A stretch of 64,000 nucleotides of DNA, taken from IMG/VR virus record IMGVR_UViG_3300031857_000014. One strand, given 5' to 3'. The notes under the pieces are model-generated. The model ran no database searches. It was not told where the DNA came from and saw nothing but the letters and a program-made list of their open reading frames with translations. This document shows, one piece after another, positions 20,288 to 53,515 of the stretch. Each line of letters begins with the position of its first letter. The first letter of the stretch is position 1. The position numbers and the translations under genes are program-made. The DNA comes from a virus (taxonomy: Duplodnaviria; Caudoviricetes).

Positions 20288-20479
20288 ATGATTATTATTG
20301 ATGTAACAAAAGAAAAAAATATTGAAACCGCGTTGAAAAACTATAAAAACAAGGTGAATAGAATTAAACAAATTCAAAAATTGAAAGAGAGAAAAGAATA
20401 CGTGAAACCCTCTGTAGTTAAAAGAGAAATTATATTAAAAGCTAAATTTAAAAATAAAATGAAAAATGGTCTTAATTAA
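20288..20479 (+). CDS. rpsU: phage-encoded ribosomal protein bS21 (Bacteroidota type)
   Basis: MIIIDVTKEKNIETALKNYKNKV...ERKEYVKPSVVKREIILKAKF matches the bS21 pattern (I-x-x-AL-K-x-x-K-x-K ... R-x-x-F/Y-x-KPS). Start at 20288 rather than 20213. Confidence 0.9.
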   Translation: MIIIDVTKEKNIETALKNYKNKVNRIKQIQKLKERKEYVKPSVVKREIILKAKFKNKMKNGLN

Positions 20480-49037: not shown

Positions 49038-49127
49038 TAAGATTTTTTATTTTTAAAATTTATTTCCTATATTTTTATTAGTTCTTTGAAATGCCTGGGT
49101 GGTGAAATAGGTATACACGCAAGACTT

Positions 49128-49822
49128 TAATCTTTTTTGTGTTCTGTTTATACTTATAATATATGAATATAAAATACACAAAAGAATTTTTGGAACCAAT
49201 AGTTAAGGAATGTGGTTCAATTAGACAAGTTTTAATAAAACTAGGGTTGAGAGAAGCAGGAGGAAATTATGAAAATATCAAAACTAGAATTCAATTATTC
49301 GGTATTGATACATCACATTTTCACGGAATGGTTTGGAATAAAGGTAAAGAGTGGTCAAAAGTTAAGGATTTAACTCCTAAATTAATAGAACACTCAACTT
49401 ACACTACAGGATTACCAACCTCAACAAATAGATTGAGAAAACAATTATTAAAACTTGGATATAAAAACCACATTTGTGAATTATGTGAATTAACTGAATG
49501 GAGAGGAGAAAAAATCCCATTGGAGTTACATCACATAAATGGTAATAGGTTTGATAATAGGATAGAAAACTTACAATTTTTATGTCCGAATTGTCACTCA
49601 TTTACTGACAACTATAGGAAACGAAAAAATTGAGTGCACAAAGAGAAATCTTTGATGTAGAACTCCGTAAATTCGGTGAACCCTTTAAGATGGGAATACC
49701 GAGCCAAACTCGTAAGAGAAGGTGTAGAGACTAGACACGGAGCACCTAAATCGTAAGATATGGTGAAGGTATAGTCCAGACCACAAACAACTTTAGTTGG
49801 TAGTGAAAACTATAGTGGTAAG
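49128..49822 (+). mobile_element. group I intron (IC3-like, tRNA-Leu type) with an ORF in the P1 loop
   Basis: IGS GAGT (49632-49635) pairs with exon ACTT with a terminal U.G. P AAATTCGGTGAA, Q GGGAATACCGAGCC, R GTAGAGACTAGAC, S ATAGTCC; P3 CTCCGT/ACGGAG; terminal G at 49822. Confidence 0.92.
49163..49633 (+). CDS. intron-encoded HNH homing endonuclease
   Basis: CELC...LELHHINGNRFDNRIENLQFLCPNCH. Its TGA stop overlaps the intron IGS. Confidence 0.92.
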   Translation: MNIKYTKEFLEPIVKECGSIRQVLIKLGLREAGGNYENIKTRIQLFGIDTSHFHGMVWNKGKEWSKVKDLTPKLIEHSTYTTGLPTSTNRLRKQLLKLGYKNHICELCELTEWRGEKIPLELHHINGNRFDNRIENLQFLCPNCHSFTDNYRKRKN

Positions 49823-49913
49823 AAAATCTTGTGACCAGCAATGGTCGTGCGGGTTCGACCCCCGCCCCAGGTACAAACACTATTGTTCTTTGACATATAA
49901 GGAGAAACAAATT

Positions 49914-50222
49914 ATGGAAACACTTTCATTCGTTTTAGGAATTGCTTCTGTGGTGGTTATTGCTAACGTAATAGTCACTGTAGTAAGTATTGTTAAGGTG
50001 ATTAAAGTCACAAGAGAGTTCAATGATTATGCTAATAATATGTCACATGAACTTGATATTAAAACAAAAGATATTCACGATCAGATATCACGTGAAATAG
50101 ATATCCTTAATCGTAGAATTGATAACTTAGATAGAGAAATCTTTTCCCAATTAGATTCTCGACTAGATAAATTGGATGGTAAATGGTCTTCACTTGTTAA
50201 AAGTAAACAAGTAATAAACTAA
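49914..50222 (+). CDS. membrane-anchored coiled-coil protein embedded in the tRNA operon
   Basis: METLSFVLGIASVVVIANVIV TM segment; AAGGAG Shine-Dalgarno upstream. The longer ORF-track start lies inside the intron. Confidence 0.75.
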   Translation: METLSFVLGIASVVVIANVIVTVVSIVKVIKVTREFNDYANNMSHELDIKTKDIHDQISREIDILNRRIDNLDREIFSQLDSRLDKLDGKWSSLVKSKQVIN

Positions 50223-50255
50223 ACTAAAAATTAGTTGAAGAACAATAGTGTTTTT

Positions 50256-50327
50256 GGTCCTGTAATTTAATGGATAAAATATCTGCCTTCTAAGCAGACT
50301 ATGGTAGTTCGATTCTACCCGGGACTA
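50256..50327 (+). tRNA. trnR: tRNA-Arg(UCU)
   Basis: GGTCCTG/CGGGACT acceptor, TCTGC-CTTCTAA-GCAGA, GGTAG-TTCGATT-CTACC. Confidence 0.9.
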
Positions 50328-50342
50328 CTAAAAGAATTAATT

Positions 50343-51073: not shown

Positions 51074-51078
51074 TTAAG

Positions 51079-51212
51079 TAAGGGTTGAACGGGGAATGAA
51101 GATAATATAGATACCTGTTGGTGGGTGGGCTATATCTTCGGAGTTGAAACTAACGTTAGTAATGCCGTTCATAAAAGAAGTTGTCCACTCGACCATCCTC
51201 TTCTTTCCCTTA
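51079..51212 (+). ncRNA. unassigned structured RNA (~134 nt)
   Basis: Nested helices TAAGGG/CCCTTA, TGAACGG/CCGTTCA, GAAGAT..ATAG/CTATATCTTC, AAAGAAG/CTTCTTT. Confidence 0.6.
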
Positions 51213-51217
51213 TTTTT

Positions 51218-51419: not shown

Positions 51420-51539
51420 AGTCAGGTGGCGGAATTTCTAAGCATGACGAATAGTTTTATACTACGAGGATGATTGCAGAGAATTGGTTATGGCCCGCTC
51501 AGTAATGAGAAAGCACAGGTTCGAATCCTGTCCTGACTA
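51420..51539 (+). ncRNA. tRNA-shaped RNA with an expanded D arm and no anticodon loop
   Basis: AGTCAGG/CCTGACT+A acceptor, ACAGG-TTCGAAT-CCTGT T arm, GCGG/CCGC D stem around a 62-nt loop, and a GTAA-capped mini hairpin in place of the anticodon arm. Confidence 0.75.
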
Positions 51540-51657
51540 CTGATTCAGTTTGCCCGGGGTAACGGATTGATAGGGAAACCTTACAATCTTCTGTAATCAA
51601 AATCCAAACATTGTCTCACTGGTGTTTGGGCTAAATGTGAGAAAAAAACGGGAACAT

Positions 51658-51949: not shown

Positions 51950-52411
51950 ATGAAAAAATTCACAACACTTCATGGTGTACCAATTGATAATCTTATTGGT
52001 TACATAAAAGAGTATATTTCAACTAAAGAAAATGTTGAAATTTTAATTGGTTCAGATTCACAATGTTTCAGAAATACAAAAACAACATATGGTGTTGTAA
52101 TTGCACTTTATTCAAAAGGAAAAGGGTGTCATGTATTATGTAGTAAAGAAACAACTCCAATTGAAAGAAATACTGCGACAAGATTATTAACGGAAGTTTG
52201 GAAATCAGTAGAAATTGCTGAGTATCTTAGAAGCAACGATTTACCAAAACCAACATGGATTGATATTGACTTGAATCCGGATCCAAGATATAAATCAAAT
52301 CAAGTATTAAGACAAGCAATCGGATTAGTTGAAGGTATGGGTTATAATGTTAGATATAAACATAATGGTGCAATTATGACCTATGCTGCTAACAATCTTG
52401 TTAGATTGTGA
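51950..52411 (+). CDS. RNase H-like YkuK-family protein
   Basis: ILIGSDSQ, YGVVIALY..GKGCHV, RLLTEVWKSVE, IDIDLN, AANNLVR. Start at 51950. Confidence 0.8.
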   Translation: MKKFTTLHGVPIDNLIGYIKEYISTKENVEILIGSDSQCFRNTKTTYGVVIALYSKGKGCHVLCSKETTPIERNTATRLLTEVWKSVEIAEYLRSNDLPKPTWIDIDLNPDPRYKSNQVLRQAIGLVEGMGYNVRYKHNGAIMTYAANNLVRL

Positions 52412-52609: not shown

Positions 52610-53515
52610 AAATATTATCCATTTAGGATTCACAGTTTTAATCTTCGGATTATTTCTGAAGTTCTAATAAAAGATAATTGGGCGGTCTATAGTCCATTCA
52701 CCTTCGGGTGACAGATACCTTCGGGTATTTGAAAATAAACTATGAAAGTAGTATAAAGTGACTTACTTTGGTTGAAGTAGGTTGCGGTTCTCGAAAGAGA
52801 ACTCGAGTAGACAAGCGAGATATCATTTAATCTTGAGTACTGAGGGTGACACTGTAGGGAAAGTGGTTGAATGACTTGGCGATGTGGGTCGTCAGGTTGA
52901 GGTGGGAACACCAATAAGAATAACTCGTAGAATACATGCAAGAAATAAGGTCATCCTACTTTATAATTGCGTTGTTCAATATTAGAGTTGATTTAAAACC
53001 GAAAGGTATGATGATGTACAGATGGTGCTGTTATTATCCTTAATCTTTGTCCTACCAAGGACTTGATTATGAAGTTGACTTGAAATATGGAGACAGGGAT
53101 GTTTCAGAGGGTAGTTCAGTATTTTCTCGTTCAAAAGATGGGAGAACTGGTGACGGACCACTACCTTCAAAATCCACAAACCAAAACTTTTTGATTGTAT
53201 TCAAAAATATTAAATCAATAAAGAAAAAGTGTCCGTCAGTTGTCAGAAACAGGTGACTACACAGTCGTGAGGGGTTCACGGCCACAAAGGGTCTCAAGCC
53301 CGATGTGATTTTTAAGAAAGTTCTCTAATCCCGCAAGGATGAGTTGGGGTGGCAACCTCGAAGAGCAGCAAGTATTAAGAGAGTATTTGACAACTTTAGG
53401 ATTGGTTAATCTAATTGACCGTCACTGATTGGTACTACTCAAAAGGTAGTGGATAAGGGAAGAACAAATAATGTCCCCAAGTCAATCAATAGAACTTGTA
53501 ATCTCAGAGTTTCTT
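52610..53515 (+). ncRNA. large ornate non-coding RNA (~0.9 kb), GOLLD-like candidate
   Basis: No credible CDS, higher GC, cUUCGg hairpins (52698-52711, 52715-52728), GAAA/GCAA tetraloops, and 5'/3' end pairing AAGTTCTA(52659)/TAGAACTT(53490). Adjacent to the tRNA cluster. Family assignment untested. Confidence 0.75.

Follow-up and report, generated by a model that had tools for sequence, protein, structure and literature searches.

A covarying terminal RNA helix containing boxA encloses a gene for a predicted small membrane protein in freshwater phages of Bacteroidota

A family of small genes that occurs in many freshwater phages of Bacteroidota is enclosed by a long-range RNA helix, which joins the leader of the gene to its trailer, covaries across the family, and contains a boxA as the inner part of its 5' strand. 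This terminal helix, here called the clamp, is specific to the gene. In addition, the boxA is constrained, a second covarying hairpin lies within the coding region (CDS), and the ribosome-binding site is left free between the two structures. The window, which is the whole 64-kb stretch of viral DNA analysed here, belongs to a T4-like jumbo phage, for which major capsid, prohead protease, portal, and terminase genes were found, and related genome records (G001-G004) served for the genome-level comparisons. The first-pass annotation had described a message with paired ends at this position (Table 1); the identity of the inner 5' arm with the host rRNA boxA and the hairpin in the CDS were absent from it.

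Table 1. Features of the clamp gene and its surroundings in the window
Feature	Position	Strand	Remarks
tRNA-Leu(UAA)	49093..49873	+	5' exon 49093-49127; intron 49128-49822; 3' exon 49823-49873 (read from sequence)
HNH ORF in tRNA-Leu intron	49163-49633	+	HNH_3 match over cut-off
boxA heading tRNA-Leu transcription unit (unpaired type)	49081..49092	+	exact pattern match; fits host rRNA consensus
Clamp 5' arm	49875..49894	+	outer covarying part 49875-49884, boxA inward of that
boxA GTTCTTTGACAT	49885..49896	+	same as rRNA spacer boxA of several Bacteroidota
Shine-Dalgarno	49899..49904	+	9 nt before ATG, outside stem
Clamp gene, 102 aa	49914..50222	+	predicted transmembrane helix at about residues 4-29, then coiled coil, conserved DSR-DK end
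RNA hairpin in transmembrane-coding region	49930..50001	+	core CDS nt 19-86, loop 49964-49967
Clamp 3' arm	50234..50253	+	anti-boxA plus outer part; begins 11 nt past stop codon
tRNA-Arg(UCU)	50256..50328	+	2 nt past clamp; in closest relatives only

The 20-bp stem that had been claimed for the window is present, with 16 Watson-Crick pairs between 49875-49890 and 50238-50253, followed by U.G, G.U, A-U, and C-G. It is the sole perfect inverted repeat of at least 14 bp with arms less than 1 kb apart in the 64-kb window, and when both spacers were shuffled (n=5000) the longest helix obtained had 12 bp. Folding of the 391-nt stretch gives a z of -3.96, a stability that none of 100 shuffles reached, and the pair probabilities are 0.9-1.0 at clamp pairs 2-16. 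Among 780 ORFs of three phage genomes, a helix between the two untranslated regions of -19 kcal/mol or lower was found only at the clamp gene, once per genome.

The helix between leader and trailer is present in each of the 75 distinct loci that make up a first set and in 65 of the 70 loci found by protein alone, where all counts refer to loci or sequences, not to independent events, and the two sets overlap. The first set was partly chosen by the boxA+GGAG pattern, and the frequencies of boxA and Shine-Dalgarno (SD) sequences are therefore taken from the protein-found set. In the first set the helix is far stabler with the cognate trailer than with non-cognate trailers. Of five distant homologues four have the clamp, the one without it being L387. 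In an alignment of 33 copies the 16 core columns (columns 7-22) are paired at 100%, compared with 30-56% in slid controls, and double changes are found in 101 cells, where shuffles give 39.4 +/- 7.1. The outer columns change freely between U-A and C-G, and the outer arms have no sequence in common between lineages; pairing drops to background more than about 8 nt outside boxA. Because G.U combinations exceed A.C combinations in the fixed columns (32 vs 5), the pairing is that of the RNA of the plus strand and not that of a DNA repeat. The double changes are spread across every branch of the family tree, which is a quick and poorly resolved protein tree showing only that the stem is spread across all branches. 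Of the ten strongest covarying pairs over the entire element, seven belong to the clamp and the other three to the CDS hairpin. Unbulged stems are 14-21 bp long in 63 of 64 cases, the conserved length being given as 16-21 bp, and in some lineages the boxA half of the stem is bulged or weakly paired. A comparison of the arms in relatives had been proposed together with the stem; they are conserved and covarying, so that the refuting outcome named there did not occur. An mRNA with paired ends is the best reading.

Nus factors and boxA are familiar from rRNA, from lambdoid phages, and from a few autoregulated gamma-proteobacterial mRNAs, and we know of no demonstration of Nus regulation of mRNAs outside the gamma-proteobacteria. 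The leaders and spacers of 81 Bacteroidota rRNA operons bear the pattern GWTCWTTGAMA(T/A), several of them exactly in the phage version. Exact copies in the window are confined to the heads of stable-RNA units and the leader of the clamp gene. With at most one mismatch, boxA is present in 60 of the 70 protein-found loci; most variants in the family remain within the known consensus, and in most loci it sits 28-34 nt upstream of the AUG. At boxA columns 2, 5, and 6 the entropy of the 5' strand is zero while the partner drifts (U.G in up to 21 of 64 unbulged copies). Since the 5' strand is fixed while its partner drifts between A and G, the boxA strand is apparently both read and paired, and the simplest reading is that it would serve as a sequence signal and as a helix strand at different times. 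It is this asymmetric conservation that suggests that NusB-NusE may bind the boxA of the clamp gene and affect its translation. Of the 62 further boxA copies in these phages, 61 lack a partner of this kind, the exception being a truncated family member; given these unpartnered copies and the single clamped gene per genome, a general clamp for tRNA-array genes or for every boxA is ruled out. The boxA stays with the clamp gene where no tRNA follows, and also where another boxA lies 120 nt upstream. It has lost its consensus, with the stem kept, in one lineage (L356, L359, L361, L370, L378-380) and in two distant homologues, and in this lineage the stem has been rebuilt by compensatory changes. 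When the boxA of host Bacteroidota was compared with the rRNA trailers (45 leader and spacer tests), the best helices had 4-11 bp and were G.U-rich. The host boxA is therefore not paired with the trailer of 16S or 23S rRNA, so the clamp has no host processing stem as its model, and mimicry of such a stem is ruled out.

The position between two tRNAs, which the first-pass annotation had put forward, holds for the window, where the gaps are 1 nt and 2 nt and the 5' arm begins 1 nt beyond the tRNA-Leu discriminator (49873), but it does not define the element. An upstream tRNA or tmRNA, of many identities, abuts the 5' arm in 57 of 75 and 65 of 70 loci, mostly at 0-2 nt, and a downstream tRNA is present in 21 of 75 and 19 of 70 loci (about 27%). 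Neither flank has a tRNA in 17 of the 75 loci, which rules out a need for two flanking tRNAs. In L146, one of these 17 and a 73%-identical homologue, the stem starts just after a promoter-like motif, and transcription may start at the stem itself. From these comparisons we take the conserved trait to be a paired end whose 5' overhang is close to nil rather than the pair of tRNAs; the adjacency to a tRNA 3' end could come partly from the tight packing of the arrays. The tRNA-Leu(UAA) is split after U34 by a putative group I intron and is unseen by ARAGORN (default) and Rfam; ARAGORN misses it because the intron with its HNH ORF splits the tRNA. In L001, L011, L014-L016, and L019-L022 the clamp is preceded by similar tRNA-like 3' ends that went undetected, and a tRNA-like element with acceptor and T arms, uncalled by ARAGORN or Rfam, lies at 51420-51540 (+) of the window.

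The tRNA arrays of these phages hold further elements. An unannotated ncRNA family of about 110-170 nt, at 51076-51214 (+) in the window, is also found at L011, L013-L016, L018-L026, L031, and many more, in total at dozens of loci, with no Rfam match. It comprises two helices, one terminal and one with a variable insert, together with an A-rich linker and a conserved hairpin, and at several loci it directly follows the clamp; the variant in the window has compensatory changes and is not antisense to the clamped mRNA. A full-length GOLLD RNA (53107-53510, +; 326 bits) is preceded in the window by tandem Bacteroidota-type promoters and a boxA (52597), and GOLLD is also present in L146. The tRNA region of the window contains an RNaseH_like (PF04308) gene at 51950-52411 (+) over the cut-off. 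ARAGORN identified phage tmRNAs with unusually long (22-24 aa) acidic tags in L001, L004-L009, L014, L018, L023, and L024, and, in one carrier phage, a tRNA with the ochre suppressor-like anticodon UUA (L013:4039-4109). In L277-L278 (G003 139166-140608, -) the same 20-nt palindrome is found on both sides of a gene and might be an operator or promoter repeat.

The second structure, in the CDS, was first suggested by RNAalifold. In the first 38 codons of 81 dereplicated copies the three strongest covarying pairs fall on one antidiagonal and all join a third position with a third position, i.e. synonymous sites, and a run of 14 columns is paired at 75% or more. Compared with synonymous shuffles the mean z is -3.2, against -0.3 for a C-terminal control; the hairpin of the window has a z of -3.4 and about 33 bp. 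As the inner end of the clamp is 18-19 nt from the AUG in 59 of 64 copies and the hairpin begins at about +19 relative to the AUG, the two structures leave a single-stranded gap about as wide as the footprint of one initiating ribosome. The SD and the AUG are outside the stem in every copy, and the SD takes part in no covarying pair. Even in L315 and L319, where the stem is shifted inward, the SD and start codon have moved downstream along with it and the SD is still free. Sequestration of the SD is ruled out because the stem stops 18-19 nt before the AUG. On the other side, 1-17 nt (mostly 4-12) separate the stop codon from the clamp's inner end.

The SD had been called clear and unusual, and it is indeed the strongest among the 67 ORFs of the window (-8.2 kcal/mol; 6 bp), whose leaders are A-rich and SD-less, an SD 4-mer being found in only two of them. 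In three related genomes, with ORFs called by a simple script, 4 of 361, 6 of 203, and 6 of 216 ORFs reach -7 kcal/mol, and the clamp gene is included each time. The SD is kept in 61 of the 70 protein-found loci and lost in one lineage (L309-313, L322, L325-328). That the GGAG run is a mere extension of boxA is disfavoured, as boxA at non-coding units is followed by TTGG and the family has an SD-type run at SD spacing; we therefore favour an SD, with one lineage lacking it. Since one lineage has kept the stem without boxA and another without SD, neither is strictly required, and judged from sequence the stem is the core of the element, boxA and SD being common yet dispensable.

The setting of the phage bears on the use of SD sequences. 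Its bS21 gene (20288-20479, +), which has no SD, is located among TerL, portal, prohead protease, and capsid genes, on the strand opposite to the flanking portal and prohead protease genes, and has Phe54 at the Tyr54 position (counted from the Met at 20288). The same arrangement is described for freshwater Bacteroidetes myoviruses by Chen et al. 2022 (PMC9723584), in passages that make no mention of the clamp gene or RNA. The clamp module is also present in 174-181-kb phages without detectable bS21. Ribosomes of Bacteroidia without bS21 enhance SD-led translation, and bS21 autoregulation needs an extended SD (PMC9976891). Since the SD of the clamp gene has 6 bp, and since no bS21 is detected in some of the phages that carry the gene, a link to bS21 is kept to a speculative reading below. 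A small HSP20-like gene (L286:5254-5694, -; G002), whose extended SD (-13.5 kcal/mol) stands out in a genome poor in SD sequences, is a candidate for bS21-sensitive translation.

The ORF of the clamp gene shows substitutions that favour third positions, and the proteins of the family have 80-130 aa. One search yielded 309 relatives and another 153 clusters (50% identity, E <=1e-10); those with genomic context are phage-like. The proposed membrane-anchored coiled coil agrees with the hydrophobic N-terminus and with the AlphaFold model, which is one continuous helix (pLDDT 92.6). A homotrimer is predicted: the three-copy model, which is the state that was modelled, scores 0.76 compared with 0.00 for the best control, with contacts agreeing at 97% or more and a pLDDT of at least 85. 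Solved pairs came up to the mark in 20 of 30 cases and single chains in 1 of 23, counts that apply only approximately to three copies. The family consensus RLDKLE fits the trimer motif R-h-x-x-h-E. Basic residues follow the hydrophobic stretch, which suggests an N-out anchor with a cytoplasmic coiled coil. Our best guess is an action at the host envelope during infection, in lysis control or exclusion. Searches of Pfam, PHROGs, NCBIfam, and PDB sequences gave only weak coiled-coil or transmembrane noise below the cut-off, the ESM Atlas only unnamed viral clusters, and the GenBank phages no match. The Mu-like releasin DUF2730 and the holin BhlA also combine an N-terminal transmembrane helix with a coiled coil, but their feature scores are only 0.81 and 0.78, which shuffled proteins often reach, and there is no HMM match over the cut-off.

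From the terminal helix, the constrained boxA, the CDS hairpin, and the free ribosome-binding gap we infer a pre-rRNA-like, Nus-looped, end-protected mRNA module, in which a Nus tether would delay translation and help the clamp to close, a reading that we give about an even chance of being right. Judging from the sequence match and work in E. coli, the host NusB-NusE/NusA/NusG/SuhB complex would bind boxA and tether it to the RNA polymerase. The nascent mRNA would thereby be looped out and coupled translation held off as in suhB, where a boxA 6 nt from the SD represses translation via Nus factors (10.1101/091223). The 3' arm would emerge 275-360 nt later, nucleate on the outer arm, and zip through boxA, displacing or excluding the Nus factors and freeing the message; the pairing itself is shown by the covariation, and its timing is our proposal. 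The tether may keep the 5' arm near the polymerase such that the long-range helix can form as in pre-16S rRNA, for which looping by the rrnTAC is known to chaperone the formation of 5'-3' helices (10.64898/2026.03.17.712431). The 5' end, with 0-2 unpaired nt, would then come from tRNA 3' processing or from a promoter at the stem, and the 3' end would be set at the stem by RNase P cleavage or by trimming. With both ends buried in the stem the RNA should resist end-dependent decay, as RppH and RNase E require single-stranded 5' ends (PMC3997798). The long-lived message would finally be translated after transcription from the free gap, whose geometry is observed, usually with the help of an SD, to give an inner-membrane-anchored coiled-coil trimer. 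The selected 3' arm argues that it is the full-length RNA that would matter. It is distinctly unlikely, in our estimate, that the element represents a new class of bacterial mRNA, pre-rRNA-like, Nus-looped, end-clamped, and stably stored, that is read in a closed loop or solely by ribosomes whose anti-SD has become exposed through loss or exchange of bS21. If this were true, the phage would sense the state of the host ribosomes and time a membrane effector accordingly.

Cleavage offers another account of the same helix. On this view RNase III would act on the clamp, or on the CDS hairpin, as it does on an rRNA leader-trailer helix; Nus looping would aid the helix, and cleavage would excise the mRNA from the operon, take it out of the Nus complex, and set its activation or decay. 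We consider this unlikely. The likeness to rRNA RNase III stems noted at first extends to the covarying complementary flanks but not to what they enclose, which is a protein gene, nor to their length, as 63 of 64 unbulged stems have at most 21 bp, whereas 22 bp is cited as the minimum for E. coli RNase III. The duplex is nevertheless long and near-perfect, at least 17 bp are the functional minimum in the E. coli 16S leader-trailer helix (PMC11404451), the rrnTAC boosts RNase III cleavage (10.64898/2026.03.17.712431), and the length of the window's CDS hairpin fits as well. RNase III was found in Bacteroides, as a control of the phage-genome search, and the host enzyme might still cut a 16-21-bp duplex and shorten the life of the mRNA. 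However, none is encoded in the four phage genomes, the host's own boxA lies outside any processing helix, and two flanking tRNAs, where present, already free the RNA by tRNA processing. A purely passive stabiliser we likewise think improbable: the stem would protect the ends, boxA would be a generic antitermination signal for downstream stable-RNA genes, and its pairing would be incidental or turn antitermination off at the end of the unit. Such a role would suit the boxA at the head of each stable-RNA unit in these phages, the lineages that keep the stem without boxA, and the terminator that directly follows the 3' arm at several loci. It does not account for the distance between boxA and AUG, which is fixed at 28-29 nt even where nothing non-coding lies downstream (54 of 75), for boxA being kept behind another boxA 120 nt away, for the selection that holds the 3' arm complementary to boxA itself, or for the CDS hairpin.

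The remaining explanations have less in their favour. In an inert mRNA of the type I toxin kind, the 5'-3' pairing and the CDS hairpin would silence a membrane-toxic protein, and 3' processing or an altered ribosome (for instance one that has lost or exchanged bS21) would turn it on, making the element a timer or an abortive switch. The small transmembrane product, the long-distance pairing, and the in-ORF structure are as in aapA3 (PMC6733600), SD-led translation in Bacteroidia is enhanced without bS21 (PMC9976891), and the phage encodes bS21. We rate this reading low because the SD is free, with SD and AUG outside the stem in every copy, and because neither a promoter motif nor complementarity revealed an antisense RNA: an antisense promoter motif is present in only 33 of 145, and the complementarity of the neighbouring ncRNA to the clamped mRNA is at chance level (9-13 nt), which rules it out as an antitoxin. 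In addition, the SD of 6 bp (about -8 kcal/mol) falls short of the extended SD needed for bS21 autoregulation, some phages with the gene have no bS21 that could be detected, and one lineage has no SD. It is very unlikely that the message works as a closed loop or circle, with the stop codon brought beside the ribosome-binding site for re-initiation or the paired ends ligated. That both the stop codon (1-17 nt) and the AUG (18-19 nt) lie close to the clamp's inner end would suit the loop, and an Rnl2-type ligase (PF09414) is present in two of four carrier genomes, only one of them over the cut-off. However, the other two genomes have no ligase, RtcB is found in none of the four, the stem contains no bulge-helix-bulge or other ligation signal, and our literature search yielded no precedent for either form; the circularisable mRNA suggested earlier thus gains no support. 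Inverted repeats acting at the DNA level, as ends of a mobile or invertible cassette, and chance are largely refuted and retain next to no probability. The module does sit behind many different tRNAs in the style of an integrative element, but the strand bias of the G.U pairs, the lack of common sequence in the outer arms, and the absence of an adjoining recombinase or target duplication speak against a DNA repeat, and chance is excluded by the covariation in the 33 copies and the 5000 spacer shuffles.

The packaging or control of a bacterial message by an end stem that hides boxA is apparently undescribed. Rfam gave no match on the element (best 20 bits vs a cut-off of 59), and a literature search, with most subscription papers outside its reach, found no description of it. 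From a boxA with a complementary strand past the stop codon one would expect a Nus switch that releases itself, and a stable mRNA that the rRNA machinery produces. With less than 400 nt, the module would test whether Nus looping folds RNAs other than rRNA, bears on how SD sequences are used where, as in this phylum, the ribosomes hide the anti-SD, and might serve as a portable mRNA-stabilising cassette. It also draws attention to an unannotated protein that appears to be expressed under careful control in many unrelated phage lineages.

Each part of the element has a precedent; none was found for the combination. With the rRNA leader-trailer helix formed under the boxA/Nus complex (PMC10250234, PMC11404451, 10.64898/2026.03.17.712431) the clamp has in common a boxA close to its 5' end, complementary flanks (about 17 bp or more) that close a large RNA, and co-transcription with tRNAs. 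It differs by enclosing a protein gene and not an rRNA, by being shorter than typical RNase III substrates, and, compared with E. coli and the tested Bacteroidota operons, by using boxA itself as one strand of the helix. In Bacillus, boxA is one strand of the rRNA leader-trailer helix. The boxA-regulated mRNAs of E. coli suhB, of a Citrobacter parE-like gene, and of the lambda N leader (10.1101/091223) carry boxA a few nt before the SD; the gap is 6 nt in suhB and 2-3 nt in the clamp gene, for which a Nus-dependent block of coupled translation is predicted. These three have no anti-boxA after the stop codon, whereas the clamp family has one, and while the suhB-type outcome is repression with Rho termination, it is the full-length clamped mRNA that appears to be selected in the clamp family. 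The type I toxin mRNAs aapA3 and hok (PMC6733600) also combine a small membrane protein with paired ends and RNA structure inside the ORF, and their translation is uncoupled from transcription, as we propose for the clamped mRNA. The clamp gene differs from them in its free SD, in lacking a detectable antisense antitoxin, in its coiled-coil product of 80-130 aa, and in the involvement of boxA.
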